UHGV virus genome: UHGV-1369766
Source of the DNA: a virus
Strand: one strand, 5' to 3'
Length of the DNA: 38,287 nt
Position numbers and translations under genes: made by a program. The notes beneath the pieces are model-generated. The model was not told the origin of the DNA and searched no databases. It saw only the letters and a list, made by a program, of their open reading frames with translations. Position 1 is the stretch's first letter; every line of letters starts with the position of its first letter. Shown one piece after another: positions 1-38,287 of this stretch.

Positions 1-53
1 CACGCAGTTAAAGTGGCGGGCGTGATGCACTAACTTACTGATTTTTATCATTC

Positions 54-1313
54 TCATATTCCTATCGCCATGCCGTGGGGCATGGATGGGGCAAAGTCCG
101 ATAATTTCTGGTTCAACATAGCAATCTGATCGCTGCTGCTGTCGGCCATCCAGGCGCCGTAAACATTGAAAACCATCTGGGCGCTGGAGTGTCCCATTTG
201 GCTGGCAATGAAACTCGGATTGGCCCCGGCAGACAGCGACCAGCAGGCGTAAGTGTGTCTCGACTGATACGCCTTGCGGTGCCTTAAACCTGACCGTTTA
301 AGCGCCGCATCCCATGAGTCACCGACTGAATCGGCTTTGTATAGGTAACCTACGCTGCCACTTTTTTTAACCAACTGAGGATTGAACACAAATGTACAGT
401 CGTGAATGACCGTTCGGCCATACTCCCGCAGTTGTACCTCAACCTGATACTGCTTGCCTAACCTGGTCATTTCCGCCTGGTTCCTCAAAGCGTCAATGGC
501 TGGCTTGATCAGGTGAACGACCCTGTCGGTACCGGCTTCGGTTTTTGGTAGAGTGAAATCACCGAGTTTCGTATAATTCCGGCGTATGGTCATCGTTCCA
601 GTTTTCAGATCTATGTCTTCCCATGCGAGGGATACCAACTCACCGTGACGTAATCCTGTGTATACCGCAATTGACCACAGGTTTTTCGTTTGCTGATGCT
701 TGCAGGCATCTATAAAGCGAACGAATTCATCACGTGTGAGCGGATCTGGTTCTATCCTGGCCCTCTTTAGCGGCTTGATGCCGTTGAACGGGTTTTCACT
801 CACATAGCCATTATCAACAGCAAACTGAAACATACCCGCGATCGTGGTCATGTAGTAGTTTACCGTCACCACACTCAACCCTTTATCCCCCGCCAGCATA
901 TCCTTCCTGATATAGAGAAGCTCTTCTCTTGTCACAGACGAAACCAGCTTATTCGCGCCAACCCTCGGCAGCATGCTTCTCACCACCGATTCATACCTGT
1001 TTATGGCATTAGCGCAGATCTCCATCCGTTTAAGCTCAAGCCATTTTTCAGACAGATCTTTTACGGTGATATCTTTCTTCCCGATGCCGAAAGTTTTCAG
1101 ATTTGGCGAGTTGGGGAATTGGGCCGCATAGTCAAAGGTCCCCATGCGGATAGCGAAACAAACTGACGTTCTCAGCTCCCCGGCCACCTTCCTGTTTTTA
1201 GCGGTGTCAGGGACACCGAGGTTTTCCCTGACACGCTTACCTTTAAAAATGAACCATATGCGGAGTGACTTTCCGTGGTTCTCAACGCCCGTTGGGTATG
1301 ATTCTTTACTCAT
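54..1313 (-). CDS. int: Phage tyrosine integrase (site-specific recombinase)
   Basis: 419 aa ORF; C-terminal catalytic region with conserved R..H..R..Y pattern (LRHGE, HxxRHT, final Y); ATG preceded by GGGAGGG RBS; sits at the prophage left end next to an excisionase-like gene. Confidence 0.9.
   Translation of the reverse strand: MSKESYPTGVENHGKSLRIWFIFKGKRVRENLGVPDTAKNRKVAGELRTSVCFAIRMGTFDYAAQFPNSPNLKTFGIGKKDITVKDLSEKWLELKRMEICANAINRYESVVRSMLPRVGANKLVSSVTREELLYIRKDMLAGDKGLSVVTVNYYMTTIAGMFQFAVDNGYVSENPFNGIKPLKRARIEPDPLTRDEFVRFIDACKHQQTKNLWSIAVYTGLRHGELVSLAWEDIDLKTGTMTIRRNYTKLGDFTLPKTEAGTDRVVHLIKPAIDALRNQAEMTRLGKQYQVEVQLREYGRTVIHDCTFVFNPQLVKKSGSVGYLYKADSVGDSWDAALKRSGLRHRKAYQSRHTYACWSLSAGANPSFIASQMGHSSAQMVFNVYGAWMADSSSDQIAMLNQKLSDFAPSMPHGMAIGI
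76..93. other. Candidate attachment-site core copy (left), inside the integrase 3' end
   Basis: TGGGGCATGGATGGGGCA matches 17 of 18 positions of a copy at 38155-38172 near the right end; weak evidence only. Confidence 0.25.
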
Positions 1314-1355
1314 TTATCCCTCCCGACGTCCAGGAGCGTTGCAAGTTTACCTGTT

Positions 1356-1601
1356 TCATACCGCCCGATCACCCAATGGTTGCTTTTGCGCCTGAATCCA
1401 TGCGTCTACCGCTTTGCGGTTGTACATGCATTCGCTGGTTGGCTTTGGGTCACCTTCAGGGGAAACGTGCTTATACTCACGCCCAAGCAGCCAGGATGAT
1501 TTGCGGGCCCGTGTAATGGTTCCACGTTTCATCCCTGTGACTGCCATCAGCAAGTCCTCTGAAACCCATTCGTTTGGCTCGATCTGGATTATTGTCTGCA
1601 T
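1356..1601 (-). CDS. xis: Excisionase-like small DNA-binding protein
   Basis: 81 aa basic ORF immediately upstream of int on the same strand; GAGGTG RBS; position typical of lambdoid xis. Confidence 0.65.
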   Translation of the reverse strand: MQTIIQIEPNEWVSEDLLMAVTGMKRGTITRARKSSWLLGREYKHVSPEGDPKPTSECMYNRKAVDAWIQAQKQPLGDRAV

Positions 1602-1760
1602 GCATCACCTCTGCCGCACTCTTTAACTGATATAGAATTCCCAGCTACTGGCGACGGAATTCATAACCTTAATCGCCATTTCAGCCGTTTCCCTGCTGTC
1701 GTAACACTGGAAATACATCTCCTGCCCAGTACGTTTAAGCTTCATCATTACCCACATACA

Positions 1761-2096
1761 TCACCTCAGGTGCTTACCACGTTCTTCAAACTCTTCTTGG
1801 CAATCAGCACGGCGCTGTGCATCCCACAACAGGAACTGCATATCAGCACACTCGCTGAGATCGTCAGGTTCGGCTGCGGCTTCCAGTGCCTCTTTTGAGA
1901 GGTGTTTCAGTGGACCAATGGGGCCAACGCAGCCAAATGTGGAGTCAGACCATTTGGCATGCTCGTGGCGAATCAGTTCGCGTTCCAGTGATGCCAGTGC
2001 AATTCGTGCCAGTTCCATTTGTTCGCCACGAGTAAGCCCGTTTTCAAGCGGATTTTTAATGAATAATTCGATACGTTCTTTGGTAATAGTGGTCAT
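1761..2096 (-). CDS. Hypothetical early-left protein
   Basis: 111 aa ORF, ATG with AAGGTGA RBS at 7 nt spacing; tightly packed with neighbours. Confidence 0.5.
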   Translation of the reverse strand: MTTITKERIELFIKNPLENGLTRGEQMELARIALASLERELIRHEHAKWSDSTFGCVGPIGPLKHLSKEALEAAAEPDDLSECADMQFLLWDAQRRADCQEEFEERGKHLR

Positions 2097-2098
2097 AG

Positions 2099-2290
2099 CT
2101 ATTTCACCTTAATCTCAACATTTCGCAGCTTTAGCTCTACTGGCTGGTCTGACTTTCCGGTTAATGCTAATGCGAGATTTTCTGGGGTAATGAGAGCAGT
2201 TATTGTTTTCCCCATTGCCAGACGAATAATTATTCGTATTTCGCGATCGTCACATGCTCCTGGTCGAACGATTGATATTTGTCCGTACAT
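2099..2290 (-). CDS. Hypothetical small protein
   Basis: 63 aa ORF, ATG with AAGGAG RBS; 1-nt gap to the upstream gene's stop codon. Confidence 0.45.
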   Translation of the reverse strand: MYGQISIVRPGACDDREIRIIIRLAMGKTITALITPENLALALTGKSDQPVELKLRNVEIKVK

Positions 2291-2291
2291 C

Positions 2292-2969
2292 TCACTCTCC
2301 TTTGATGCGAATGCCAGCGGCGCGGATTGCAGCGATGATCTCAGAAACTTTGTATGCCATTACCGTTTGGTAATCCTCGTGAAAATCTGTTCGATGAAGC
2401 ATGCTGCTACGTTCCGGGAGCAGTATTTCCCGCTCCTCCAGTTCTGCTATGCGCTTCTCTGCGGCTTCCAGCTTCTCGCGCATATCGTCAACGTACTCGA
2501 CCAGAGAACCGCCAGCAGGAATTTCGCACTCCTCGACCAGTTGGAAGTAGATATCAGCTGCGGCCCGTGTGTTGCTATGCCTAGCGTCGCCCATCTCACC
2601 TTCACGAAGAGCATCGCGTTCGGCGGTAAGATTGGCTATTTTGCTGTCTTTGCCTTCCAGCTCAACGCGCAGCCTCCCTACCGTTAGCGCAATATCCTCG
2701 TTCTCCTGGTCGCGGCGTTTGATGTATTGCAGGTTTCTTTCCCGTTCATCCAGTAGTGCCAAAGCAATCTTGGGATTAAAGGCAGCAATAAATTCAGCGT
2801 TGTTTTTCAGAACGTGTTGCGCAATGGCCTGACTACTTAGCCGGACTTCATAACCACGTGCGCCACGGTGTGGTTTATATGAGTCCCAGTCACCCCACGT
2901 TGCTTTCTCTGCCTTTTCACGCAGTGCCTGATAGTCAATCTTGCTCACTGGTTGCCTCCTTTGCGCCAC
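2292..2969 (-). CDS. Ead/Ea22-like protein
   Basis: 225 aa ORF with coiled-coil central part and C-terminal ...[14 protein letters not shown] motif recalled from Ead/Ea22 family; apparent GTG start. Confidence 0.65.
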
Positions 2970-3130
2970 ATCGCATTCAGATATTTGTTTTGATTCACTG
3001 ATGGAAAAGAATTTCTTTTAAGCAATTCCTCTCTCGATGGCATTGGCTTTACGCGTTGGCGAATAATCATTTCTGCCGGAAGAATGCCGGGATTGTATGC
3101 AAGTCCTCTCATGGTAAATTCCTCAGTCAT
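2945..3130 (-). CDS. Hypothetical small protein (61 aa, ATG-start version of the 2945..3262 ORF)
   Basis: ATG at 3128-3130 lies 3 nt upstream of the stop of the preceding gene (coupled arrangement); the longer track ORF would need a TTG start. Confidence 0.3.
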
Positions 3131-3416
3131 TACTGATAGCGCCATAGCGTGAGCGGTAATTACGCTGGCGCGGGTCAATTTCAGGGAAGTGGGTATATGT
3201 GGCTTTGCGGAATGGTCGGATTGATGTCTGGTAAATTCGCTCGCGTTCTTCTTTCTCTGCAAGCCATATACAATGGCGAAATTCCTTTTCCTCTTTCGTT
3301 TCCTGCGGTAGCGACATTATCCGGTTGTAGTTTTTCCTGAATTTATCCAGCACCTCCGATACGGAATTGCCGGAACAGCGGCGCGCGTCATCCGCACCAT
3401 ACAGAGGCGCTGGCAT
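3123..3416 (-). CDS. Hypothetical protein
   Basis: 97 aa ORF; strong RBS (AGGAGAAAATC-ATG). Confidence 0.5.
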
Positions 3417-3429
3417 GATTTTCTCCTGA

Positions 3430-3897
3430 TTAAATTGCGTGAATAGCGTGACGAGGGAAGGGGAGAGTTACTGGTTCCTCGTCTGGATATATTGGCTTGT
3501 TGTGCTTGTGCCATTCAACATGACATGCTTTGCATAGCCACATCACTTCAAGAGGTTTACTGTAATCGCAGTGGTGAGCGTCTGGGTGGCATTTGCTGTT
3601 GCATTTCTGACACGTTGTTGGTCTACATAACTTACCAGATTTAATTGCTCGTTTGACTGACCATCTTGCTTGCTGTCTTTGGCGATGAGATTCCAGATAG
3701 TTCTCTCTTGCTTTGATTAATGCAACCTTGCCCTTTTCGCTTTTGTTATATTTTTTACAAGCATTATTATGTATTAGCTTTCCTATTCCTTTTTGATATT
3801 CAGTTACTCGTTTTTTAGTGCATTCCTTGCACACCTTATTTCTAGGATAAAAACCATTAGGTGGTTTATTCTCTCCACATTTTTTGCAAGTGATCAT
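3430..3897 (-). CDS. Zinc-ribbon / HNH-like endonuclease-type protein
   Basis: N-terminal CxxC...CxxC zinc ribbon, C-terminal ...DAHHCDYSKP...WLCKACHVEWH resembling an HNH motif; ATG with GGGAGAA RBS; the 5' half of the gene is visibly AT-rich relative to flanks. Confidence 0.6.
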   Translation of the reverse strand: MITCKKCGENKPPNGFYPRNKVCKECTKKRVTEYQKGIGKLIHNNACKKYNKSEKGKVALIKARENYLESHRQRQQARWSVKRAIKSGKLCRPTTCQKCNSKCHPDAHHCDYSKPLEVMWLCKACHVEWHKHNKPIYPDEEPVTLPFPRHAIHAI

Positions 3898-3912
3898 ATT
3901 TTCTCCCAATGA

Positions 3913-4374
3913 TTAAAATGGGATCTCATCGTCGAAGTTCATAGGAGGTTCGTTGTGTTGTGCTGGTGATGATTGCTGCTGTGGCTTCTGTGATTGCCTG
4001 CTGGCTGCTTGTTGTTTGCTGTCGCCAATGCCGCCAAGCATTTGCATCACGCCATTAATTCCGACATGAACCTCGGTTGTGTAACGGTCTTGTCCTGACT
4101 GGTCTTTCCACTTTCTGGTTCTCAGCATTCCCTCGAAATAAATCTGATCACCTTTTTTCACATACTGCCCCACGACCTCAGCCAGTTTCCCGGATACAGC
4201 AACACGATGCCATTCAGTCAATTCCTTTTGCTCGCCAGTATTTTTATCTCGCCATTGTTCTGACGTGGCTATTGTCAGGTTAGCGAACGCTGTTCCTGAT
4301 GGTGAGTATCGAACTTCCGGGTCTTGTCCTACCCGACCAAGGATAATCACCTTATTTACGCCTCTGCTTGCCAT
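3913..4374 (-). CDS. ssb: Single-stranded DNA-binding protein
   Basis: 153 aa; OB-fold-like N-terminal region, Gln/Pro-rich linker and acidic C-terminal tail ...NFDDEIPF typical of SSB. Confidence 0.9.
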
Positions 4375-5082
4375 TTATGCCGCCTGTTTTAGTTCGTTAA
4401 CTCTGATGTTCATTACCTGAACGCATTTAGCCTGCGCCTCCTCGTTGCCAGCCATTAATTGCCAGTCATGCTGATAACGCTCGATGAGTTTTTTCTTGTC
4501 AGTTTCTGTCGCTGCATAATCGCTGAAGTCTTTCAGGATTTGTTCGCAGTCAATCGATGGAGATTTCTGGTTGGTATTTTCTGGTGATGGTTTGTTATCT
4601 GATGCTGGTATTGCCCATCCCGGCAGCGATGGAGGGAGCCAGTAAAATCCTGTTCCATCCTTGAGTTTTGCCCTGTGCCACCCCTGCTTTTTATCGAGAG
4701 ATGTTTGTGCAAAACCTTCCTCAAGGTTATACAGATACCGACCGATTCCCCACTGAACGGCAGCACGCTTCATTGCACCGGAACGACCACCTTTGACGGC
4801 TTCTACCTGTGTGTTTTCAGCAGCATCCCATTTGGTTACCCATTCGGAATCAATCTTTATTGATATGCCGCATTCAACGCCGCCGTTGTTGGGAATATCG
4901 CGGTATTCATTGCGCCATCCTGCTTTGCCGCAAACATCGTCCAGGCGTTTCATGATTGCCCGGTTCGTGACATAAGCCAGCACCATAGCCCACACCTTGC
5001 CATCGCGTGTTTTACCGCTTTGCTGTATTCGCCATTCGATATCTTCAGGGCTGAATGGCTCATCGAATTTATTCAAATCCAT
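4375..5082 (-). CDS. Single-strand annealing recombinase (Rad52/Sak-like N-terminus, Erf-like C-terminus)
   Basis: 235 aa; N-terminal part with GIGRYLY-type motif; C-terminal ~60 aa (...YAATETDKKKLIERYQHDWQL...CVQVMNIRVNELKQAA) matches my recollection of the P22 Erf C-terminus; GAGGTGA RBS. Confidence 0.75.
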   Translation of the reverse strand: MDLNKFDEPFSPEDIEWRIQQSGKTRDGKVWAMVLAYVTNRAIMKRLDDVCGKAGWRNEYRDIPNNGGVECGISIKIDSEWVTKWDAAENTQVEAVKGGRSGAMKRAAVQWGIGRYLYNLEEGFAQTSLDKKQGWHRAKLKDGTGFYWLPPSLPGWAIPASDNKPSPENTNQKSPSIDCEQILKDFSDYAATETDKKKLIERYQHDWQLMAGNEEAQAKCVQVMNIRVNELKQAA

Positions 5083-5090
5083 AATTCACC

Positions 5091-5279
5091 TCAGAATGGT
5101 AATTCGGATGGGGAGGAAAGAAATTCGCGCTCATTCATGCGCTCTCTTTGTGCTTGCCATAAACAAAGTTGTTTCTTTGATTTATCTCCCGCTTTACGCC
5201 AGTAACGAGCCTCAGCAATGTGATATTCTCTTTTTAATCGACTTAACTCTGGAGTTTTCGCCAGCTCTACCGGAATCAT
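5091..5279 (-). CDS. Hypothetical small basic protein (possible recombination accessory factor)
   Basis: 62 aa; GGAGG RBS 5 nt before ATG; start overlaps the stop of the upstream Kil-like gene. Confidence 0.5.
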   Translation of the reverse strand: MIPVELAKTPELSRLKREYHIAEARYWRKAGDKSKKQLCLWQAQRERMNEREFLSSPSELPF

Positions 5280-5389
5280 TTAGACCTCCATTTTCTGTAG
5301 GCTTCGACGGCCTCACGAAACATCTTTTCATCGCCAATAAAAGTGGCGATAGTGAATTTAGTCTGAATAGCCATAAGTGTTTTATCCAT
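5276..5389 (-). CDS. kil: Kil-like host-killing protein (37 aa)
   Basis: MDKTLMAIQTKFTIATFIGDEKMFREAV... closely resembles my recollection of the lambda Kil N-terminus; its ATG overlaps the cIII stop (ATGGATAA). Below the ORF-track size cutoff. Confidence 0.55.
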   Translation of the reverse strand: MDKTLMAIQTKFTIATFIGDEKMFREAVEAYRKWRSK

Positions 5390-5528
5390 TTTTTGGAACT
5401 CCTGGCTGATTAAGTACGTCGATGAGTCGTTTCCATCCGTCACGTAATTTACGGGTGATTCGTTCAAGTAAAGATTCATTTAATTGGAAGGCACCCATGC
5501 GAGCGCCTCCCGCGATTGCGTAAATCAT
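5382..5528 (-). CDS. cIII: CIII-like protease inhibitor (48 aa)
   Basis: MIYAIAGG...ESLLERITRKLRDGWKRLIDVLNQPGVPKNG matches the conserved lambda CIII core as I recall it; AAGGAA RBS; not in the ORF track (<60 aa) and out of frame with the overlapping 5276..5479 track ORF. Confidence 0.7.
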   Translation of the reverse strand: MIYAIAGGARMGAFQLNESLLERITRKLRDGWKRLIDVLNQPGVPKNG

Positions 5529-5552
5529 GGGTGGTTCCTTATGTTGGTTTTA

Positions 5553-6521
5553 TTAGTAGGTTATTTTTGTTGCGAATACTTCGCCTTTTACGATGGCTGT
5601 TATGATATTTTTAGCAACATCTTCTGATGCGCCAACCTTGATAAGGTCAGCAAGTATTTTGTTATTTACTTCTTTCCGGTGAGCTTTATCCTTTGCTCTA
5701 CGCTCTTCTTCGTCCTTGATTCTTTTTTCTTCTGCTATTCTGGCTTGCTCTTTTACTTCAGCCTCGCGCCGGATTCGTTCAGCCTCCTCCTGTGCTTTTC
5801 GGCGTTCTGCTTCAATTGCCGCCTGCTTTTCTCTTTCAGCTCGTTCTGCTGCCTCTTTTGCTTCGCGCTGTGCTCGTTGCTCGGCTTCAATGCGTTCACG
5901 CTCTGCACGTTCCGCTGCGGCCTTAGCTTCTGCTTCTCGCCTTGCTGCTGCTTCAATTTCGGCTTTTGCCTTTGCTTCGGCTTCAGCTCTGGCTTTCTCT
6001 TCAGCTTCTCTTTTTAAGCGTTCTTCATGCTCTCGCTTTTCCTGCTCAGCTTTGAGTCTTGCCTCTTCTCTTTGGCGGTCAAATTCGCGATCCATCAAAA
6101 TCGCTATTTCATGGTCAGACTCAATTTGCTTTGCGAGAGCTTCAGCTGCTGCCTTAGCTTCTTCTTCGGCTTTAATCCGCGCCTGTTCTTCCTCATAATC
6201 AGTAAGAGGCTGGCGCGCCTTGGCTTTCAGTTCATCAAGGCGATCACGCACTGTCTTGCGGTTGGCATCAATTAGCTTTGGAATTTCCTTAAGTTCAGCA
6301 ACAAGGTCTTTGCCAAGACCATCGAGATATGTTTTCGTCTGCGCAACTTTATACGCCAGAGAAGCGATCTCCTTTCTGCCCTTTGCCGTTGTGATATCAG
6401 GCACAAAGGACATAACTTCACGTTCAACCTTTTGGAGAATTTCTTCAATCTGGTCGGCAGACTGAAATACAGTCATTGCATTTGCTTTTTCAATAACAAC
6501 TAAATCTGTTACTTCACTCAT
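5553..6521 (-). CDS. Hypothetical protein with long E/R/K/A-rich predicted single alpha-helix or coiled-coil segment
   Basis: 322 aa from the ATG at 6519-6521 (GGAGGAT RBS); ~110 aa of charged repeats (AEEKARAEAEAKAKAEIEAAARRE...); position analogous to the ea10/ral/sieB accessory segment of lambda. Confidence 0.65.
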   Translation of the reverse strand: MSEVTDLVVIEKANAMTVFQSADQIEEILQKVEREVMSFVPDITTAKGRKEIASLAYKVAQTKTYLDGLGKDLVAELKEIPKLIDANRKTVRDRLDELKAKARQPLTDYEEEQARIKAEEEAKAAAEALAKQIESDHEIAILMDREFDRQREEARLKAEQEKREHEERLKREAEEKARAEAEAKAKAEIEAAARREAEAKAAAERAERERIEAEQRAQREAKEAAERAEREKQAAIEAERRKAQEEAERIRREAEVKEQARIAEEKRIKDEEERRAKDKAHRKEVNNKILADLIKVGASEDVAKNIITAIVKGEVFATKITY

Positions 6522-6533
6522 ATATCCTCCATC

Positions 6534-6561
6534 AAAAAAAACTGCCCTCACACTGGAGGGC
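6534..6561 (-). terminator. Intrinsic terminator in the PL operon (tL1-like)
   Basis: Minus-strand GCCCTC-CAGTGT-GAGGGC hairpin followed by AG and eight T; sits between the 207-aa and 322-aa genes. Confidence 0.75.
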
Positions 6562-6695
6562 AAAGAAGATTTCCAATAATCAGAACAAGTCGGCTCCTGT
6601 TTAGTTACGAGCGACATTGCTCCGTGTATTCACTCGTTGGAATGAATACACAGTGCAGTGTTTATTCCGTTGTTTATGCCAAAAATAAAGGCCGA

Positions 6696-7319: not shown

Positions 7320-7330
7320 ATTAATTCCTC

Positions 7331-7630: not shown

Positions 7631-7942
7631 GTTGACCTCCGATGAAACAACTTTGGAATTTTTTTATTACAAAGTTGTTTCCTTCCCCGCCAATTAGACG
7701 GGGATGGAAGAGCATTTATGAGCCTTCATGGACTCTGCTCGATCAGTTCTATTTAATTAATCTCTCAATTGAATGTAAGTATTCACATAAATCCTCCTAC
7801 CTCTTGTGCAGCTTTCTTGAATATGGTGGCGGCTGCATAACGCCTATGGAATTGACTTTGGCGGTGACGCGCCGGGTGCTTATCTTCCGGTTGCCGTCGT
7901 GCAGCTGCACTTCACGTCACCCCAAAGCCAACTACTCTTTGG

Positions 7943-8072: not shown

Positions 8073-8102
8073 TATTTTTGATGAAATAATGATAAGCAAA
8101 TG

Positions 8103-30891: not shown

Positions 30892-30900
30892 GGGGTAATC

Positions 30901-32289: not shown

Positions 32290-34286
32290 TGGCTAAAGCA
32301 TGGAAAGATGTTATCGCCTCTCCACAGTATCAGGCGTTAGCACCAGAACAAAAAGCGCAGGCTCAGGAGCAATACTTCAATGAAGTCGTGGCCCCGCAAG
32401 CTGGAGAAAATGCAGAGCAGGCTAAGCAAGCTTTCTATGCTGCCTATCCATTGCCATCTGCGCAGCCAGTTGATACACAGCAACCAGTAGCACAGCAACA
32501 ACCACAGCAAAGTGGATTTATGTCTGATCTTGGTGAAGCAGTGAAAGAGACTGGTCGCGGACTGGTGCAGGCTGGCGTGAACGTGGCAAACATACCTGCA
32601 TCAGTTGCCGATGCTGTAACGAGCGCGGCGGCTTGGGCTGGCGGTAAACTCGGCATTGGCGATGGGACATATCAACCAGCGCCACGAGTAACAACGCAGG
32701 GATTAGAGCAGGACTTTGGCCTTCAGCAAGGCGCGCTGACTCCACAAACGACAGAGGGAAGGGTATTTGCTGAAGCATTGCCTTACCTCACTCCTGCTGG
32801 CGTTGAGAGAGCAGCAACACAGGCACCAACACTTGCTGGTCGAATTGCTCAGGGGGCAACACGACTTCTCGCAGAAAACGCAGTTGGATCACTTGCTGCA
32901 AATAGTGCGAAAGATGATGCGGAAGCACTCGCCACCGATTTAGGCGTTGGTGTGCTGGCTGGCGGTGCTATTAACGCTGCCGGACGTGGATTAGGTGCTG
33001 CTTATCGTGGCGTTCGTGGTGCTATTGCGCCAGAAGCGCAGCAGGCTATCAGATTTGCAGAGCGTGAAGGAGTTCCTCTGCACACCACAGACCTGTTACA
33101 GCCTACTTCCCGCGTCGGGAAAATGGCGCAGACTACAGCAGAAAATATCCCCCTGGCTGGCACAAGCGGAATGAGAGCAACGCAACAGGAAGCGAGAAGC
33201 CAGTTGGTGCAGAGATTTGCTGATAAATTCGGTGAGTATGATCCAGCTGTTGTTATTGACAGCCTTAAAGCGAAAACATCAGGAATTCGTCGTGCTGCAG
33301 GGAACCGTCTTGAGCAGGTTCAGAATGCAATGGCAGGAGTCAACATTCAACCTGCACGAGCAATTCAGCAGATTGATACTGAGATATCTAACCTGCAGAA
33401 GCTTGGTAAGGTGGCTGATAACGAGACAATTTCAAAACTTCAATCCTATCGTGATGAGCTTGTTCGCAATGCTGGTCCTGATGGTCCGGTAAATCTGGAT
33501 TTGAAGCAATTAAGCGATCTGCGCAGCCAGTTCAGAATGGACGTGAAGGGTGAGCGACCAGTGTTACCAAACCGTTCCGATGCTGCCATTCAGCGCGTTT
33601 ACAAGGCGATGACCGACGATATCAATGGTGCCATTGGTCAGAATCTTGGCAACGATACTCTCCGTAAATATCAGCAGGCCAATGCCGTCTACGCTGACGA
33701 AGCGGCGAAACTAAAGAATACCCGGCTGAAGAATGTTCTCATGAAAGGCGATCTTACTCCGGAAGTTGTCAACAGCATGCTATTCAGCAAGAACAAATCG
33801 GAAATTAAGACGCTGTACAACTCAGTTGGCCGTGTTGGCAGGGCGCAAATGCGCAATGGCATCATTGGAAAGGCGATGGAGAAATCAGGTGGATCCCCTG
33901 ACCAGTTCCTTCGGCAGCTTAATATCCTGCAAAACCAGACTGGCATCACATTTAAGGGGCAGGACGCTGCTTATCTGAAAGGATTAAAAAACTATCTGCA
34001 ATCCACGCAGCAGGCTACAAAAGCGGCAGTAACAACACCAACAGGGCAGCAAACCATCCCGTTCATTATCGGATATGGGACGGCAATGAACCCGGCGACA
34101 ACTGGCGCAGCAGTAAGCTACGGCCTTCTTGCTCGCGCCTATGAGAGTGAGCCATTCAGAAATGCAATGCTACGAATGGCAAACACACCACACGGATCAA
34201 CAGCGTTTGAGAAAGCCATGCAGCAGGCGCAAAAGGCAATTAACGCTATGACGCAGGGGGCTAAGTCTGAAGCGTTGTCAGAATAG
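32289..34286 (+). CDS. Ejection protein (P22 gp16-like)
   Basis: 665 aa; order and approximate size as P22 gp16; last gene of the plus-strand late block before a strand switch. Confidence 0.75.
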   Translation: MAKAWKDVIASPQYQALAPEQKAQAQEQYFNEVVAPQAGENAEQAKQAFYAAYPLPSAQPVDTQQPVAQQQPQQSGFMSDLGEAVKETGRGLVQAGVNVANIPASVADAVTSAAAWAGGKLGIGDGTYQPAPRVTTQGLEQDFGLQQGALTPQTTEGRVFAEALPYLTPAGVERAATQAPTLAGRIAQGATRLLAENAVGSLAANSAKDDAEALATDLGVGVLAGGAINAAGRGLGAAYRGVRGAIAPEAQQAIRFAEREGVPLHTTDLLQPTSRVGKMAQTTAENIPLAGTSGMRATQQEARSQLVQRFADKFGEYDPAVVIDSLKAKTSGIRRAAGNRLEQVQNAMAGVNIQPARAIQQIDTEISNLQKLGKVADNETISKLQSYRDELVRNAGPDGPVNLDLKQLSDLRSQFRMDVKGERPVLPNRSDAAIQRVYKAMTDDINGAIGQNLGNDTLRKYQQANAVYADEAAKLKNTRLKNVLMKGDLTPEVVNSMLFSKNKSEIKTLYNSVGRVGRAQMRNGIIGKAMEKSGGSPDQFLRQLNILQNQTGITFKGQDAAYLKGLKNYLQSTQQATKAAVTTPTGQQTIPFIIGYGTAMNPATTGAAVSYGLLARAYESEPFRNAMLRMANTPHGSTAFEKAMQQAQKAINAMTQGAKSEALSE

Positions 34287-34376
34287 CTTTTCAAACACCA
34301 GGAACGTGCAAAAACCAAATATGTAGAACGCGAGGTTTATCGTATCCCTCTGCATAGGCGATACCTTTGCTGATTG

Positions 34377-34862
34377 TTATCTGATGTTACTGCTACTGTT
34401 GCATGTGACTGTATTTCCAAACCCTGAATTGCAGTTTGTGTAAGTGTCAACTCGTGTTGGATAGGGTTGAGTTATAACAGGCTGTCTCGCTTTTTGCTCG
34501 ATCGCTTGCATTGTGTTTACAGCCTGATAATTCAATAAAGCCTGCTGGAATGCTTGGCTTTGTGCTATTTGTTGGGCTTGTTCTTGGCTTTGTAATTGAA
34601 CATAAAGATTCTGAAGCTCAAGTCTTGCCTGTGCGTCACTTATCTTGCCTTCATCGACACCTTGCCCGAGCATCTTTGCAGCAAGGACATACAACTTAGG
34701 TGTTGGTGCTGATGCCATGCGTGAGTCGTTCTTCACACTGGCATCAAGGCAATTAGCCATATCGCTAAGCTTTTGATAGCGTTGTTCGCAACTTGCTTGA
34801 TAGTCACTTACTTTTGCGCATCCAACCAGCAGAAGCGGGATAATTAACAGTGATTTTTTCAT
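34377..34862 (-). CDS. Predicted lipoprotein (moron; candidate superinfection-exclusion or lysogenic-conversion factor)
   Basis: 161 aa from the ATG at 34860-34862 (AAGGAGAG RBS); signal peptide with lipobox MKKSLLIIPLLLVGC; Gln-rich mature region; minus strand, AT-rich, in the sieA/immI-equivalent slot between ejection genes and tailspike. Confidence 0.65.
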   Translation of the reverse strand: MKKSLLIIPLLLVGCAKVSDYQASCEQRYQKLSDMANCLDASVKNDSRMASAPTPKLYVLAAKMLGQGVDEGKISDAQARLELQNLYVQLQSQEQAQQIAQSQAFQQALLNYQAVNTMQAIEQKARQPVITQPYPTRVDTYTNCNSGFGNTVTCNSSSNIR

Positions 34863-34932
34863 ATGGTTAACTCTCCTTAGTTTTTCACAGGATATCATGA
34901 AGGCAATGCCATTTTAGCCGGAAACTAGATTT

Positions 34933-35199
34933 CTATGTTTCCTTCTTATTATTGCTATACATGGTCTTAAGCGTATCAAAGACAATTTTCTTAACCATCT
35001 CAGATTGTTGTTCTGCCATACGCTCTGCGTCGTCAATGTAAACAGATGCAGAGCTTTGTTTAGCCAATGATTCTTCAATCGCTGCAATTATCTCTGAGTT
35101 CAGCGACCTGTTATTCATCTTCGCACGCTGTTTAATTTTCGCGTGTAGTTCGTGCGTAAGCCTCAAGTGGAACTGCGCCTCATCGTATTTGCTGTACAT
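34933..35199 (-). CDS. mnt: Mnt-like ribbon-helix-helix repressor
   Basis: 88 aa from the ATG at 35197-35199; RHH core (QFHLRLTHELHAKIKQRAKMNNRSLNSEIIAAIEESL) and C-terminus ...DDAERMAEQQSEMVKKIVFDTLKTMY parallel P22 Mnt (...NDAERLADEQSELVKKMVFDTLKDLY) as recalled. Confidence 0.8.
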   Translation of the reverse strand: MYSKYDEAQFHLRLTHELHAKIKQRAKMNNRSLNSEIIAAIEESLAKQSSASVYIDDAERMAEQQSEMVKKIVFDTLKTMYSNNKKET

Positions 35200-35260
35200 C
35201 CTTGATGCCCTCACCAGTGGGTGGAATGGCATCGTAAAACCTACTGGATAAATCAACAAT

Positions 35261-35277
35261 CATACCATTTCGGTATG
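35261..35277. promoter_or_regulatory. 17-bp perfect palindrome (CATACC-ATTTC-GGTATG), candidate Mnt operator
   Basis: Located in the 135-bp divergent region between the mnt start and the tailspike start. Confidence 0.45.
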
Positions 35278-35334
35278 TAACTATAGCTTACCGCAGCTCT
35301 GCTGTGGGGACTAATTGCGCCCGGAGCACATCAA

Positions 35335-37383
35335 ATGACTAATACCAATTACTTGGTCTCTATGCCGTCCACTCCTTTTTCGGCGCCACGAGCATTTAAA
35401 TCAGTGGCGAATGGGAAAATCTATATCGGAAACCCTGACACTGACCCGGTAAATCCTGCCAACCAAATCCCGGTATATATCGTTAATGAGGATGGCTCCG
35501 AGGTTCAGGTTTCACAGCCAATCATCATTAACGCCGGCGGCTTCCCGGTCTATAACGGCCAGATTATGAAGTTCATCACCAAACAGAACTTCAGTATGGC
35601 GGTTTATGATGCGTATGGAGCACAGCAGTTTTATTGGCCTGATTTATCAGAAATTGACCCATCTGCAATCATAGCCATGCTTTCGACTAGCGAAGGATCT
35701 GGAATGATTGGATGGGCGCGAAATTATTCTTGCGAGCTTGCAGCTACTGTTTCCGTATTTCTATCTGCACAAAAGATTAATTTATGGGAATATCGACATC
35801 TGGCGCTCGATACTATTGTTGATGGGGCTGAAGTCGTTGACTGGACACCCGCCATGATTCAGGCGCTGGTTGATGGTGCAAAATATAAGCGGCAGGTTTA
35901 TGCACCAGGCGGGAGATATTACTTTCAGAAAATGCCTGAGTTTGTAAATTTGGATTCCTCCGGTTCAACAACAAACATGTCCATGTATTCGCTGGTTGGT
36001 GACGGACACGATAAAACTATTTTCTGGACAGACAGTCTGGTTGGCAAGGAAATGCATTTCAGTACATGCCGCTTTTATTTTGATAAATTTAGTGTGCAGC
36101 GCGTGCTACAGGGGGATGATGCCGCATACCGGGATAGCAAGATACCCCTCATGCAGCTTGGACGCAGTACTGACATCTCTGCGGCCAGGCTCGGTTATAT
36201 GGGGGATGTACGCTTCAACGGCAGTCCGTGGGGTCTGAACATAGAGCACTGCTGGGACTCAATTTTCCAGGATGTCATTGTCCATAATTTCCAGACATCA
36301 GGCATTCGCATAGGCATGCATGATGTAGACAACAGTAATAACCTGTTGTTTATCAGAACACATATTGAAAGCTGTCAGTATAAAGGTGAAAACCTGTGTC
36401 GCGCCTTTGCTGATATGTCATATAAGACTGGTTCGCGGGTAAACCATAACATCACCCTCATTCAGCCGCATATTGAGCCTGTTAATCTGCGTTGCCATAT
36501 TTTTTATTCATCCTATGGAAAAAATATCAAAGTCATCAATCCGGCATTCAACCGAAACAATGGCTCCGTGGATAAAGGGTTATACCTCGACCCTTCTCTC
36601 GCTGCGCCAGCGGTGTACTCGTCGGATGGTGTCAACATCCACATTGATGGTGGTCAGATTCAGCATATCGGGCCACGCAGTGACACCGTTGCTCCCCTGT
36701 TTAAGTTTGTTGGTACGCATAAAGGTTGGCGGTGTGACAGCTACATTGATACCGGGAAGGAGACTTCACGCACTGATTTACTGTCTTCAGTTGACGTTTC
36801 AAGAAGCAATAATGGGTTACGTGAAATTTCATTTAAGGGAGCGACAGTCAACTCATTTACCTCGATGAGCTCTGTAGGCGACAGACTGAGAGTGGCTCCT
36901 TTAAATGACCTGCAAAAAGTATTCGATCTGGTTGCAGAAACCTTCATCCCACCGGGGGAAACGAACACTATCGCACGGATTATTGCGATGTATTCCAACA
37001 CGCAGGATTTATCCACTCCCCAGCAAAAGGCGTGGGATATCACCAGTGCCGGACATGCATCATTTAAGGCGTTGCGCGGTCAGCAGTACATCATTCAGGC
37101 CGGGGCAGTGGCGACGGTTAACGTAGGTGTCGGGGCACTGGAGCGGCGCGGAACTTATCTGATTAGCGGGGCGGAAAACAATAACCAACTTTTTGCGATG
37201 TTCTTTAATGTTCCAGGACAGGCTCCCAGTGAAATTAAAACTGGCTCCAGCGTTAATTTATCAAGAGTGCAACCTGATGCATCTGTCACCGGCAAGCTGT
37301 GTGTGTATCAGAATAATCAATATATCAATCTTGAAAACAGAACCGCATCCGCGGTGACTGTTAACGTCAATTTTTTTGCGTGA
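35335..37383 (+). CDS. Tailspike protein: P22-like N-terminal head-binding domain fused to a divergent receptor-binding domain
   Basis: First ~110 aa (…[47 protein letters not shown]…MAVYDA…) parallel the P22 gp9 N-terminus as recalled; the remaining ~570 aa do not. Confidence 0.9.
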
Positions 37384-37390
37384 GGTGATT

Positions 37391-37630
37391 ATGTCCTTAT
37401 CTTTATACCGCTCAACAAGGACCGTACAGGCTTTAAAGATAGCATCTGTCGCTATAGCTGAAGATTACTCGGCTGTTCTGAAAGATGCTTCAGGTAATGA
37501 GCTTATCGTAAGCGCCGATTATGTTGTGCGGGAAAAACCAAAGGCGGGTGGGTATTATATGAAAAATAATGATGGCTTTGAGGCATTTCTCGATAAAGAA
37601 GTTTTTGAAAGGGATTTCGCTCTCGTCTGA
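37391..37630 (+). CDS. Hypothetical protein
   Basis: 79 aa from the ATG at 37391 (GAGGTGA RBS) directly after the tailspike stop. Confidence 0.45.
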   Translation: MSLSLYRSTRTVQALKIASVAIAEDYSAVLKDASGNELIVSADYVVREKPKAGGYYMKNNDGFEAFLDKEVFERDFALV

Positions 37631-37722
37631 ATACTTGTTTTTCAGATGGCTATTCCTGTCGATTCAAGCTGGTATAGCCATCACTTCAATTCACCTGATT
37701 GTCATCAGGCTAGGTGGATATT

Positions 37723-38115
37723 ATGGATTATATTGGTTTCGATGTAATTTTAATCTGGTATGCTGGGGTAGGTTTCTTTTTATGGACTGTCGCCCAGATT
37801 ATCAGGGCGGGTGAAACAAATGGAGTATTCAATAATATTGCATGCCTGTTGCTGTTTGTTATCGCATGGCCGAAGATAATGTGGACACTTTGCTGCCTTA
37901 TTGTAAAGAGACTTTTTGATGTTGATCATCAATTATTATCAGAAAGCAGAGGTGTCAAGCGAGGCGGCGGGACGGAGCTTGCCACGCTGAGAGGAAGGTC
38001 GCTGATTACCGAAGATGGTGAAGCGATCGAGGGTGAAGCCTTGGACGATGTTAGCGTCATCGGGGTCGTGACATTTACTATCTGCGATGTCCGCGGGGAC
38101 AATACCGTTGTTTAG
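37723..38115 (+). CDS. Hypothetical protein with hydrophobic N-terminal half (extent uncertain)
   Basis: ATG at 37723 with AGGTGG RBS; AT-rich hydrophobic first half, then a compositionally different GC-richer tail that may not be coding in this frame. Confidence 0.3.
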   Translation: MDYIGFDVILIWYAGVGFFLWTVAQIIRAGETNGVFNNIACLLLFVIAWPKIMWTLCCLIVKRLFDVDHQLLSESRGVKRGGGTELATLRGRSLITEDGEAIEGEALDDVSVIGVVTFTICDVRGDNTVV

Positions 38116-38154
38116 TTGCAGTAAATTGGTGGAAGATTTCGCGTGGCAGGGTTC

Positions 38155-38172
38155 TTGGGGCATGGTTGGGGC
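38155..38172. other. Candidate attachment-site core copy (right)
   Basis: TGGGGCATGGTTGGGGCA, ~780 bp beyond the tailspike gene; pairs with the copy at 76-93. Confidence 0.25.
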
Positions 38173-38287
38173 ATGAGAAGTCATTAAATTTCGCCAAACA
38201 TTGCAAACAACACATGTTGATTGCTATCTCCAGCCATTGAAAATGGCGCTCCTGGACGATATTTGTCGATTTTTAAATTTACCGCGT

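Follow-up and report, generated by a model that had tools for sequence, protein, structure and literature searches.

The P22-like phages are known for their mosaic genomes (PMC2629481, PMC10883804). Their early operons are highly mosaic, a hypervariable region termed the "ant moron" lies between genes 16 and 9, and some members carry a Q protein that is 98–99% identical to lambda Q (PMC2629481). The type member of the group is the Salmonella phage P22 (AF217253). CUS-3 (CP000711) is a K1-specific P22-like phage of Escherichia coli RS218, and HK620 (NC_002730; Lederbergvirus HK620) has a genome of 38,297 bp. The records of HK620 and CUS-3 carry annotations of lambda-like Q, S and R genes and of "boundary sequences".

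The sequence analysed here (UHGV-1369766, hereafter the window) is a stretch of 38,287 nucleotides, nearly the length of HK620. It very probably represents exactly one complete, apparently intact P22-like temperate lambdoid podophage, residing as a prophage in the yecE gene of E. coli (Table 1). The 21-bp att core at its left end is found again directly after the last base of the window in contig L010, where it is followed by the original 5' end of yecE and then yecD, aspS, nudB, yebC and ruvC. On the left, the flank in strain CFS3246 and contig L020 consists of yecE, yecN, cmoA and cmoB. The integrase (Pfam Arm-DNA-bind_2 and Phage_integrase) and excisionase (DUF1233) are both 100% identical to those of the yecE prophage of CFS3246. 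A candidate arm-type site, TGGGGCATGGTTGGGGCA, is present at 38156–38173 with a second copy at 76–93, two occurrences in the window where none is expected by chance. Among 5426 E. coli genomes, 110 contain the stretch 38100–38287 at 90–96% identity, and in strain 126 the P-arm stretch adjoins yecD.

Table 1. Features of the window, from left to right.
Feature	Position	Strand	Basis or identity
att core CACGCAGTTAAAGTGGCGGGC (attL copy), 21 bp, inside the 5' part of yecE	1–21
Integration module: tyrosine integrase 54–1313 (419 aa), excisionase 1356–1601	54–1601	−	Pfam
Early-left accessory and recombination genes: Abc2 3123–3416, Zn-finger "endonuclease" 3430–3897, SSB 3913–4374, Rad52/22 annealase 4375–5082, Kil 5276–5389, CIII 5382–5528	1761–5528	−	Pfam, PHROGs
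322-aa Glu/Ala/Lys-rich protein	5553–6521	−	PHROG 1376
Nmad5-domain protein, 207 aa	6696–7319	−	Pfam PF18757, E 1e-71
N antiterminator, CUS-3 type	7331–7630	−	PHROG 271; 98% to CUS-3 N, full length
pL/oL/nutL leader region, equivalent to CUS-3 "bsq5" boundary sequence	7631–8203
HK620-type immunity region: hkaS-like membrane protein 8204–8572 (−), cI 8590–9306 (−), cro 9413–9607 (+), cII 9716–9994 (+)	8204–9994		Protein identity
Replication module: 53-aa ORF, O-like initiator 10177–11067, DnaB-type helicase P 11057–12493, ninA	10029–12576	+
nin region: NinB 13495–13935, Dam 13932–14459, Roi/KilAC 14798–15523	12569–16357	+	Pfam
Late regulator and lysis: Q 16354–16977, tR'-like terminator 17082–17110, S 17410–17733, R 17717–18193, Rz 18190–18627, embedded Rz1 18389–18574	16354–18627	+	tblastn, terminator scan
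Intrinsic terminator-like hairpin and T-run just after Rz	18658–18678	+	9-bp GC-rich stem, then UUUUUUAU
Accessory genes between lysis and packaging: Rha/ORF11CD3 18830–19372, gp49/Sf6-gp66 family 19531–19887, DUF2560/hkbM 19979–20233	18830–20233	+	Pfam, PHROGs
P22-type terminase: gp3 20263–20757, gp2 20735–22231	20263–22231	+	82% (gp3), 92% (gp2) to P22
CUS-3-type procapsid module: portal, scaffold 24523–25416, coat 25435–26688, 62-aa ORF, gp4 26899–27360	22234–27360	+
Head completion and ejection genes: gp10, gp26, gp14, gp7, gp20 30901–32289, gp16 32289–34286	27370–34286	+
Needle gp26 with Sf6-type knob	28788–29741	+	Pfam Phage_tail_NK; 98% to 720R6
Reduced ant moron/immI region: 161-aa lipoprotein 34377–34862, Mnt-like repressor 34933–35199	34377–35199	−
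Tailspike head-binding domain and linker (aa 1 to ~146)	35335–35772	+	Pfam Head_binding, E 5e-47
Receptor-binding cassette: tailspike beta-helix domain (aa ~147–682, to 37383), orfA 37391–37630 (79 aa), orfB 37723–38115 (130 aa)	35773–38115	+
P arm of yecE attachment site (attR side)	38116–38287		Candidate arm-type site inside

The window derives from a 38,308-bp metagenome scaffold, and the many repeats common to lambdoid prophages can mislead assemblers, but a chimera joining reads of several related prophages is highly improbable. Isolate assemblies are 100% identical to the window over 1–13955 and continue into the expected host flank, and independent contigs are 99.95% identical over 25335–38287 with the expected right flank; one contig of 23,233 bp should reach back to about 19.9 kb. 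The region outside independent coverage of at least 99% (about 14–20 kb) is colinear with a prophage of E. coli strain F11 at 94–100% identity, except for the Dam methyltransferase gene (13936–14440) and the stretch from Rha to gp49/66 (about 18.75–20.0 kb), which are partly lacking in F11. The same att core is found at both ends, and in other genomes the integrase and P arm are separated by about 43 kb, among the listed records in which an integrase match is also known.

The genes follow one another as intact ORFs in the P22-like order: int, xis, the recombination genes, cIII, N, cI, cro, cII, O, P and nin, then Q, S, R, Rz, gp3, gp2, gp1, gp8, gp5, gp4 and gp10, and finally gp26, gp14, gp7, gp20, gp16, mnt and gp9. 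The genes on which P22 is known to depend all have full-length, intact ORFs here, and the phage is apparently functional, although point defects in promoters, the pac site or single proteins may be present. A defective, decaying remnant is unlikely, even though many lambdoid prophages of E. coli are cryptic, mnt is all that is left of the immI region and orfB resembles a fused fragment: neither IS elements nor pseudogenes were observed in the window, 38.3 kb is a typical genome size, as in HK620, and the viable phages HK620 and Sf6 also have reduced ant morons (PMC2629481).

Each of the described phages resembles this prophage only in part. CUS-3, which covers 42% of the window at 94% identity, shares the portal (99%), scaffold (99%), coat (95%), gp4 (100%), gp10 (99%), gp14 (99%) and S, R and Rz (97–99%), but differs in the terminase, immunity, Q type, replication genes, gp20, gp16, needle C-terminus, tailspike (an endosialidase), integrase and att site, and has ant and neuO, both of which are absent here. 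HK620 (39% coverage) shares the lambda-type Q (99%), S (98%), R (100%), gp10 (99%), the Roi-like protein (88%) and YbcO, RusA and NinH (97–100%). However, its portal is only 56% identical, its coat gives no tblastn match, and its terminase, needle, gp20, gp16, tailspike receptor domain, integrase and att site differ; an O-antigen polymerase-like gene also follows its tailspike gene. P22 (27.8% coverage at 85% identity) has an identical gene order throughout, with Abc2 at 91% and c1/CII at 86%, but differs in immunity, replication and integration; the endolysin of the window is of the lambda R type rather than P22 gp19, and sieA, arc, ant and gtrABC are missing. Lambda (NC_001416) covers 8.6% and has the same regulatory gene order, but its virion, terminase, replication (O, P) and integration genes all lack similarity to those of the window.

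Megablast searches of 50,697 phage records and 5,426 complete E. coli genomes found no record that covers at least 80% of either half of the window in one place. A map of 250-bp tiles against nine references revealed sharply bounded patches of 92–100% DNA identity. Together, the nine references cover 91.4% of the window, and the best of them, the F11 prophage, covers 63%. The remaining 8.6% consists of seven stretches of 0.39–0.62 kb and two shorter ones. The closest relatives are other P22-like phages and prophages of E. coli. Immunity and replication are nearest to HK620, whereas N, portal, scaffold, coat and gp4 are nearest to CUS-3; the needle knob, gp16 and lipoprotein gene find their best relative in 720R6, and much of the rest in the F11 prophage.

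The breakpoints are estimates from this small reference panel, read at the resolution of the 250-bp tiles or, in some cases, from single alignments. Beyond 18.7 and 34.3 kb, the main ones fall inside Rz (about 18.2–18.4 kb), between terminase and portal (22190–22250), between gp4 and gp10 (about 27364), within the needle gene (about 29.0 kb), within gp20, between gp20 and gp16 (about 32250) and inside the tailspike gene (35773). Contig L012 combines the same tail module with another type of coat and gp4 upstream of it, and the change falls between gp4 and gp10. Pairwise identities do not give the direction or order of these exchanges.

The initial annotation had described lambda-like immunity, nin and lysis modules joined to a P22-like packaging and virion module near 18.7 and 34.3 kb. 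The halves' megablast results and the tile map bear out the mosaic itself, and the element is indeed a mosaic lambdoid phage with a P22-type podovirus virion. The two-parent picture is misleading, however, because P22 itself is organised along the same lambdoid lines in its early, nin and lysis regions, because the window is most closely related to other P22-like phages and prophages of E. coli, because the main breakpoints are not only at those two places and because the same pattern has already been described for HK620, Sf6, CUS-3 and epsilon34. The mosaic is the textbook pattern of the lambdoid P22-like group, not a special lambda–P22 hybrid.

Identities of individual genes, obtained by tblastn, contradict a recent direct cross between lambda and P22, which is the least probable of the explanations considered and extremely so. 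In its favour, NinB (99%), NinE (90%), NinF (91%), Q (100%), S (98%) and R (99%) are as lambda-like as had been proposed, and gp3, gp2, gp7 (83%), gp14 (91%) and gp10 (93%) are 82–93% identical to P22. However, NinB, NinE, NinF, Q and S, but not R, are also 81–96% identical to P22, and 2449 of the 3296 lambda-like bases (74%) are also P22-like. Four other proteins assigned to lambda belong elsewhere: N matches lambda only over its C-terminal 35 aa (60%), CII is 53% identical to lambda CII but 86% to P22 c1, Cro is 63% identical to lambda Cro but 100% to that of HK620, and NinH is 56% identical to its lambda counterpart but 100% to those of HK620 and CUS-3. Rz is lambda-like at its N-terminus but only 58% identical overall, with a C-terminus that is 95% identical to P22. 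On the virion side, portal, coat and gp4 are only 34%, 29% and 41% identical to P22, and the scaffold has no P22 match. The P22 assignment held for gp10 and for the tailspike N-terminus (62% to gp9). It held in part for the ejection proteins, including gp20 (69%) but failing for gp16 (34%), and for the needle, where the N-terminus (54%) is the only part with a P22 match. Mnt can be counted among the P22-like proteins, but at only 47%.

A mosaic of modules in a prophage is the reading favoured here with high confidence. The genome is a patchwork of interchangeable functional units, each near-identical to that of a different enterobacterial phage or prophage: a yecE-specific int/xis/att unit, HK620-type immunity and helicase, and a CUS-3-type N; a nin region with lambda-identical NinB, lambda-identical Q, S and R, an internally recombined Rz and a P22-type terminase; then CUS-3-type portal, scaffold, coat and gp4, shared gp10, gp14 and gp7, a 720R6/Sf6-type needle knob and gp16, and a tailspike that joins a P22-type head-binding domain to a beta-helix receptor-binding domain. 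Phages and prophages that share a host cell, by co-residence or co-infection, may recombine homologously in conserved genes or boundary sequences, and occasionally illegitimately, with selection keeping only function-preserving junctions at gene or domain boundaries. Such a route is the established mechanism in lambdoid phages.

The early-left genes encode a dATP/dGTP pyrophosphohydrolase-domain protein, an hkaF-like protein, Ead/Ea22, DUF2737, Abc2, the 155-aa Zn-finger protein, SSB, the annealase, an hkaM-like protein, Kil and CIII, in patches that are 79–100% identical to HK620, the F11 prophage and P22; the kil/cIII DNA is 94% identical to lambda and 98% to HK620. The 322-aa protein is 99.7–100% identical to F11 prophage and CUS-3 proteins and has no Pfam match; near-identical genes elsewhere are labelled "coiled-coil domain-containing" or "TolA". 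The Nmad5 gene is an accessory insertion, as 6707–7329 has no match in any of the nine references. Beyond N, the leader is 98–99% identical to CUS-3 33288–33789, which is annotated there as boundary sequence. A plus-strand ORF within it (7642–8058) is probably not a gene, and family searches returned only a 20-aa PHROG fragment.

The immunity region was found to match HK620 (cI 100%, Cro 100%, CII 99%, hkaS 99%), while cI is only 43% identical to that of lambda and 42% to that of CUS-3. P is 99% identical to HK620 P. For O, identity is 99% with the F11 prophage but 66% with HK620; tblastn gave no lambda match for either protein. The nin region contains small ORFs, NinB, Dam, NinE, NinF, the Roi/KilAC antirepressor-like protein, YbcO, RusA and NinH, the last four being 87–100% identical to HK620, CUS-3 and the F11 prophage and having no close lambda counterpart. 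The Dam gene and 12824–13265 have no match in any of the nine references.

HK620 and the F11 prophage already have the identical lambda-like Q, S and R, and CUS-3 and 720R6 have lambda-like S and R, which also argues against a direct cross. Lambda DNA similarity stops at 18438 and P22 similarity begins at 18205, and the crossover is therefore inside Rz, not at 18.7 kb; the embedded Rz1 is 95% identical to that of CUS-3. The proposed junction at 18.7 kb does have a canonical hairpin and T-run, but no strand switch. Conversely, at 34.3 kb the strand switches between 34286 and 34377, but the terminator scan found no such site there and folding was no better than in shuffled sequences. Accessory genes are present at both places, as had been predicted. 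At the first, Rha matches CUS-3 and 720R6 at 98% identity and P22 ORF201 at 55%, 19498–19886 has no match in any of the nine references, and the DUF2560/hkbM gene is a homologue of P22 ORF80 (99%).

The gp2 subunit is 100% identical to that of the F11 prophage, and neither gp3 nor gp2 has a match in CUS-3, HK620 or 720R6. Across 22190–27369, P22 DNA similarity is absent, and portal, scaffold, coat and gp4 are 95–100% identical to CUS-3, 720R6 and the F11 prophage, a further point against P22 parentage. Similarity then becomes shared again, with gp10 at 98–99% to HK620, CUS-3, the F11 prophage and 720R6; gp20 is patchy within the gene, and gp16 is 98% identical to 720R6. The immI region lacks arc and ant. 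Its repressor has Pfam Repressor_Mnt and Arc matches, and its lipoprotein (PHROG 6067, lipobox MKKSLLIIPLLLVGC) is 97% identical to 720R6. The lipoprotein shows no similarity to P22 SieA.

The tailspike receptor domain, together with the two small ORFs behind it, is the most notable patch of the mosaic. PDB sequence matches of the tailspike are limited to aa 4–111 (Sf6 and P22 tailspikes), and searches of Pfam, PHROG and PDB sequences gave nothing for the receptor domain. An AlphaFold2 model of the domain (pLDDT 74) resembles beta-helix capsule depolymerases. OrfB has two transmembrane helices and an S24/UmuD-like C-terminal fragment.

The 2.5 kb from 35773 to 38287 is 98.9% identical at the DNA level to a myovirus-type prophage of E. 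coli AB66 and 97.5% to the siphovirus-type Klebsiella phage vB_VIPKPNMC05, and 35773–38075 is 97.9% identical to a siphovirus-type Klebsiella prophage adjoining lepA. One receptor domain thus occurs on the tailspike of a podovirus and on tail fibres of a myovirus-type prophage and of siphovirus-type Klebsiella phages and prophages, and identities of 97.5–98.9% point to a very recent exchange spanning two host genera. Elsewhere, the domain is found mainly on Klebsiella prophage tail fibres. Receptor domains are presumably shared across morphotypes in the same way by P22 (podovirus), 9NA (siphovirus) and Det7 (myovirus).

Klebsiella phages have modular receptor-binding proteins (PMC8262889), and the tailspike resembles such systems in having a conserved N-terminal anchor fused to an exchangeable C-terminal beta-helix domain. 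The present case differs from them in its high DNA identity across two host genera and in the make-up of the exchanged unit. Of six related contexts, the five other than P0010 were compared closely, and in all of these the exchanged unit includes the downstream 79-aa ORF; in each prophage with readable neighbours the unit is last or nearly last at the tail-fibre end.

The stretch is exactly one prophage, integrated within yecE (5′ part); it begins at attL and stops immediately before the attR core. The att core opens the window and is repeated, as CACGCAGTTAAAGTGGCGGGC, directly after the window's last base in an independent contig with the same tailspike, where the original yecE 5′ end comes next, ahead of yecD, aspS, nudB, yebC and ruvC. 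The source scaffold measures 38,308 bp, which is the window plus a second 21-bp core; the core marks the exact limits of the window. There is a single copy of the core within the window, and no direct repeats of at least 11 bp that could serve as attL and attR were found there. An 18-nt motif is present once near each end, with none expected by chance; since the integrase carries an arm-binding domain, these copies, one per att arm, are read as candidate arm-type integrase sites. The last 188 bp of the window are found at 90–96% identity in 110 E. coli genomes and, in genomes with both matches listed, are separated by about 43 kb from an integrase match of 99% identity. The two prophage ends thus form one integration module.

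The window could also be an assembly chimera, but this is unlikely, since independent assemblies contain near-identical DNA joined to host sequence. Isolate assemblies are 100% identical over 1–13955, with yecE, yecN, cmoA and cmoB in the flank, and other contigs are 99.95% identical over 25335–38287, flanked by yecD and aspS; the region from 14 to 20 kb lies outside that confirmation. The isolate behind GCA_053752735.1 is one of those that carry the prophage.

Positions of the features discussed in the text
Feature	Position	Strand	Remarks
att core	1-21		CACGCAGTTAAAGTGGCGGGC
Start of yecE (DUF72) reading frame	1-51	-	
Integrase	54-1313	-	stop codon at 54
18-nt motif, left copy	76-93		TGGGGCATGGWTGGGGCA
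Nmad5-domain gene	6696-7319	-	Pfam E 1e-71; between the gene for a 322-aa Glu/Ala/Lys-rich protein and N
Boundary sequence	7631-8203		98-99% identical to CUS-3 'bsq5', annotated as such
hkaS-like protein	8204-8572	-	122 aa; directly downstream of cI; three or four predicted transmembrane segments
Two small ORFs 5′ of ninB	12793-13244	+	87 and 63 aa; no match among the nine references
Dam-family N6-adenine methyltransferase	13932-14459	+	in place of ninC/ninD, between ninB and ninE
Intrinsic terminator	18658-18678		canonical; 9-bp GC-rich stem and T-run
Terminase genes	20263-22250	+	P22-type; 82-92% identical to P22
Lipoprotein gene	34377-34862	-	161 aa; lipobox LVGC; sequence begins MKKSLLIIPLLLVGC
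Tailspike head-binding domain	residues 1 to about 115	+	P22-type; Pfam PF09008, E 5e-47
orfB	37723-38115	+	130 aa; two N-terminal transmembrane helices, C-terminal S24/UmuD-like peptidase-end fragment
18-nt motif, right copy	38156-38173		TGGGGCATGGWTGGGGCA

All long ORFs follow the classic lambdoid layout. In the ORF map, the genes below about 9.3 kb, as far as the integrase, point leftward and those from cro (9413) to gp16 (34286) rightward, followed by a short leftward pair at 34.4–35.2 kb and then the rightward tailspike. Transcription diverges from the cI/cro region, and the lambda-type order is complete (int, xis, recombination genes, cIII, N, cI, cro, cII, O, P, nin, Q, lysis). The virion cluster is likewise complete and in P22 order, with homologues of all twelve genes (gp3, gp2, gp1, gp8, gp5, gp4, gp10, gp26, gp14, gp7, gp20 and gp16) plus the tailspike gp9, all on the plus strand between 20263 and 37383. 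Pfam families assigned in near-identical contigs include P22_CoatProtein, P22_Tail-4, Phage_stabilise, Phage_tail_NK, P22_gp7, Inj_translocase and Phage_P22_gp16. The element has those defining features of a P22-like lambdoid phage that were tested: virion genes in synteny, a tailspike with a head-binding domain and a regulatory order of lambda type. No RNA genes were detected in the window with Rfam at gathering thresholds, no tRNAs with ARAGORN, and no known defence-system protein with PADLOC among ten accessory ORFs.

Judged from its sequence, the element lacks no gene expected of a P22-like temperate phage and none is visibly broken; the best reading is that of a viable temperate podophage. 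Such a phage would integrate at yecE, would be homoimmune with HK620, and would use a P22-type headful terminase to package DNA into a capsid of the CUS-3 type, the coat type to which the element belongs. The product of blastn coverage and identity amounts to about 40% with CUS-3, 36% with HK620 and 24% with P22. By ICTV convention, a genus corresponds to about 70% nucleotide similarity over the whole genome. Accepted members of the genus are as mosaic among themselves as the window is.

The relatives found by megablast fall among P22-like phages of E. coli, Shigella and Salmonella (including HK620, IME10, CUS-3, Sf6, 720R6, E212 and Kapi1) and among lambdoid siphophages (for example mEpX2 and relatives of HK022 and HK97). 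The initial annotation had described a mosaic, and uniform similarity to a single reference was indeed not seen: no record among 50,697 phage records and 5,426 complete E. coli genomes covers at least 80% of either half of the window. The fraction of the window aligned by blastn, with the identity of the aligned part in brackets, is 8.6% for lambda (95.5%), 27.8% for P22 (85.2%), 39.3% for HK620 (92.4%), 42.4% for CUS-3 (94.3%), 42.6% for phage 720R6 (94.8%) and 63.1% for the P22-like prophage of E. coli strain F11 (96.1%). Nine references combined cover 91.4%, and segments of the window are 92–100% identical to lambda, HK620, CUS-3 and P22, which supports only indirectly that it could yield viable recombinants with other lambdoid phages.

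The mosaic had been presented as lambda-like immunity, nin and lysis modules joined to a P22-like virion module. This division is largely a false contrast, since 2449 of the 3296 lambda-like bases are P22-like too; P22 itself already has those lambda-like genes. Protein identities were determined by tblastn against lambda and P22 and against a wider panel, with some gene starts refined. They show that the earlier description was right in its gist and wrong in several gene assignments. The close resemblance to lambda holds for NinB, NinE, NinF, Q, S and R (90–100%) and fails for N, CII, Cro and NinH, while Rz is mixed. In Rz, DNA similarity to lambda ends at 18438 and similarity to P22 begins at 18205, an overlap that places a crossover inside the gene.

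Amino acid identity of early and lysis proteins to lambda, P22 and other relatives
Protein	lambda	P22	Other relatives
NinB	99%	96%	CUS-3 100%
NinE	90%	92%	
NinF	91%	81%	
NinH	56%	60%	HK620 and CUS-3 100%
Q	100%	95%	F11 prophage 100%, HK620 99%
S	98%	91%	
R	99%	none	HK620 100%
Rz	58% overall	95% over C-terminus	CUS-3 97%
N	60%, last 35 aa only	none	CUS-3 98%
CII	53%	86% (c1)	F11 prophage 100%, HK620 99%
Cro	63%	none	HK620 100%
cI	43%	40%	HK620 100%

The virion genes are divided in a similar way. Of the proteins that had been likened to P22, gp10 (93%) is indeed close, as are gp3 (82%), gp2 (92%), gp14 (91%) and gp7 (83%), but the portal (34%), coat (29%) and gp4 (41%) are distant. The scaffold has no tblastn match in P22, and no P22 DNA similarity was found by blastn between 22190 and 27369. 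Instead, portal, coat, gp4 and scaffold are 95–100% identical to those of CUS-3, 720R6 and the F11 prophage. For CUS-3 the values are 99% for the portal, 99% for the scaffold, 95% for the coat and 100% for gp4, whereas HK620 has only 56%, 32%, no match and 42%, respectively. Among the ejection proteins the P22 likeness extends to gp7 and, at 69%, to gp20, but not to gp16 (34%). The needle resembles P22 at its N-terminus alone (54%); its C-terminus is a knob of the Sf6 type, and the protein as a whole shares 98% identity with its 720R6 counterpart. The likeness of Mnt (47%) and of the tailspike head-binding domain (62% to P22 gp9) is more modest. A sharp break at 22190–22250 marks the junction of the terminase genes, whose type is lacking in CUS-3, HK620 and 720R6, with the CUS-3-type portal, and the F11 prophage has the same combination.

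A breakpoint map made from 250-bp tiles against the references shows that the best donor switches abruptly at gene boundaries, between terminase and portal, between gp4 and gp10 (about 27364) and between gp20 and gp16 (about 32250). Other switches fall within genes, in Rz, in the needle at about 29.0 kb, in gp20 and in the tailspike at 35773, and these plausibly lie at domain boundaries. The gp4/gp10 breakpoint is confirmed by a natural recombinant, an E. coli prophage contig (GCA_013176605.1) that is 99.1% identical to 27364–38287, from gp10 through the right end, and has another coat/gp4 type upstream. The GC content is 41–45% in the immunity region (about 6–10 kb), about 48–53% over the structural genes (about 20.5–34 kb) and 44–47% from about 34 kb to the right end, which fits accessory or regulatory DNA of other origin and is not diagnostic of it.

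The established model of lambdoid evolution leads one to expect such a patchwork. Phages and prophages resident in the same cell would recombine, often within conserved genes or ‘boundary sequences’, and selection would retain those junctions that preserve function. One segment of the window, next to the hkaS-like gene, matches an annotated boundary sequence of CUS-3. A plus-strand ORF at 7642–8058 (138 aa) had been considered as a sieB-like gene, but it lies in the pL/nutL leader, is without homologues, and its DNA corresponds to the non-coding CUS-3 ‘bsq5’; by sequence, it is probably not a gene.

Lambda-identical Q genes, very mosaic early operons, mosaically related ejection proteins and a hypervariable 16–9 region have all been described in P22-like phages (PMC2629481, PMC10883804). 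The modular mosaicism of P22-like and lambdoid phages has been known since the genome analyses of HK620, Sf6, CUS-3 and epsilon34, and the phenomenon is not new. The practical worth of this element lies rather in being a clean worked example, a complete prophage with exact ends and a closest relative for nearly every module, whose breakpoints fall between genes (terminase/portal, gp4/gp10, gp20/gp16) or, plausibly, between protein domains (Rz, needle, gp20, tailspike).

The module junctions near 18.7 and 34.3 kb had been said to coincide with terminators and strand switches, where accessory cargo accumulates. Each has part of this. At 18.7 kb there is a terminator, and three accessory genes, encoding a Rha/ORF11CD3 regulator, a gp49/Sf6-gp66 family protein and a DUF2560 protein, separate it from the terminase, but there is no strand switch. 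At 34.3 kb the strand switch is real, with gp16 converging on a leftward gene, but no terminator, bidirectional or otherwise, was found between gp16 and the lipoprotein gene by a terminator scan, and folding was no better than for shuffled sequence.

The leftward pair beyond gp16 consists of the lipoprotein gene and the Mnt-like repressor, with no arc and no ant. The pair makes up the ‘ant moron’ region, which has been described as the most fluid part of the late operon, with ten types in sixteen genomes (PMC2629481). The lipoprotein gene was considered as a SieA homologue and rejected: it agrees with P22 sieA only in position and orientation, and BLASTP gave no alignment with P22 SieA. SieA types A–C are marked by a multi-pass inner-membrane topology and an FxRYPxEAxxFNK motif (PMC10883804), whereas this product shows no hydrophobic segment beyond its lipoprotein signal peptide and lacks the motif. 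The protein is also present in phage 720R6 (97%) and is a candidate exclusion or conversion factor expressed by the prophage.

None of the nine reference genomes has the Nmad5-domain gene; in Dhillonvirus, phages can escape the Tmn defence system through a point mutation in nmad5 (PMC11846954). The hkaS-like protein is 99% identical to HK620 hkaS and has no PADLOC match; given its position, its gene is probably co-transcribed with cI in the lysogen, by analogy with lambda rex. A Dam-family methyltransferase gene lies in the nin region, and of the two small ORFs upstream of ninB, the 63-aa one has no PHROG or Pfam match.

As a whole, the phage is a new combination of known modules, and its sole uncommon component is the receptor domain of the tailspike. 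The N-terminus of the tailspike has PDB sequence matches to the Sf6 and P22 tailspikes (E 2e-41 to 1e-34). From 35773 (residue about 147) to the window end, the DNA is 98.9% identical to positions 20001–22516 of a locus in E. coli AB66 (L003), where a myovirus-type prophage with contractile-tail sheath-initiator and baseplate J/gp47 genes has, as the counterpart, the 3′ portion of a tail-fibre gene together with the two ORFs that follow it. The stretch 35773–38287 is also 97.5% identical to 17259–19773 of the siphovirus-type Klebsiella phage vB_VIPKPNMC05 (L004), which has a tape measure protein, and 35773–38075 is 97.9% identical to 8532–10834 of a Klebsiella siphovirus-type prophage adjoining lepA (L017). 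The domain is rare, with 28 protein clusters among 5.8 billion; most of the named clusters are from Klebsiella, about six are E. coli P22-type tailspikes, and it occurs in only 1 of the 5,426 complete E. coli genomes. From these sequences, its transfer between Klebsiella and E. coli phages, across three tail types, appears to be very recent.

No sequence match to the receptor domain was found in Pfam, PHROGs or the PDB, and no characterised enzyme was matched. An AlphaFold2 model of residues about 147–682 (mean pLDDT 74) was compared to the PDB with Foldseek, which returned AlgE4, Depo32, Kp9 gp42, the K2-2 tailspike and DpK2, among them capsule depolymerases of Klebsiella and Acinetobacter phages. 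The probability was 1.0 and E about 1e-6, with a TM-score of only 0.3–0.44 and about 11% identity. The predicted structure is thus a right-handed parallel β-helix, matched at the level of the fold only, and such a tailspike would bind polysaccharide and probably depolymerise it. If the glycan target were found, it would make clear how specificity for a capsule or O antigen passes from one genus to another, which bears on host-range prediction and on the engineering of phage receptor-binding proteins.

Downstream of the tailspike are orfA (79 aa), which accompanies the receptor domain in all five related contexts compared in detail, and orfB, which looks chimeric. OrfA might be a dedicated partner of the receptor domain, perhaps a chaperone or a receptor-masking or exclusion factor. 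The S24-like fragment of orfB overlaps the P arm of the yecE att site, and some genomes have an S24/S26 family peptidase gene annotated there. The idea that the receptor cassette (receptor domain, orfA and orfB) is always tied to this att arm was rejected. In two prophages, the Klebsiella one adjoining lepA and an E. coli P22-like one with a different integrase, similarity stops at 38075–38093, inside orfB; conversely, a myovirus-type prophage at yecE in strain 126 has the P arm (37955 onward) without the receptor domain. The S24-like fragment is thus shared by cassette and arm, which are neighbouring but separable units.

In the podovirus-type prophage, in both myovirus-type ones and in one of the siphovirus-type ones examined, the structural genes end, or nearly end, with the tail-fibre gene on the attR side, and yecE is used by both this podophage and the strain 126 prophage. 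A tentative and rather improbable reading is that the last 2.5 kb, comprising the receptor domain, orfA, orfB and the att P arm, make up a portable host-range cassette. A single crossover within the shared att arm or the host flank, combined with a second in the conserved tail-fibre linker, would then transfer a receptor specificity from one tail morphotype to another and between Klebsiella and E. coli.

In AB66, similarity to the window ends at about 22511–22516, 5 nt into the att core; beyond that point lie a truncated tail-fibre pseudogene and, after it, a gene for tail-fibre assembly. An event at the att core may have brought the cassette into that prophage. In vB_VIPKPNMC05 (PQ351753.1), positions 19774–19901 consist of the same att core, a yecE 5′ end resembling that of Klebsiella and the first part of yecD, in that order. 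The presence of host DNA at a junction of attR type in this ‘complete phage genome’ suggests that the sequence is prophage-derived or was aberrantly excised.
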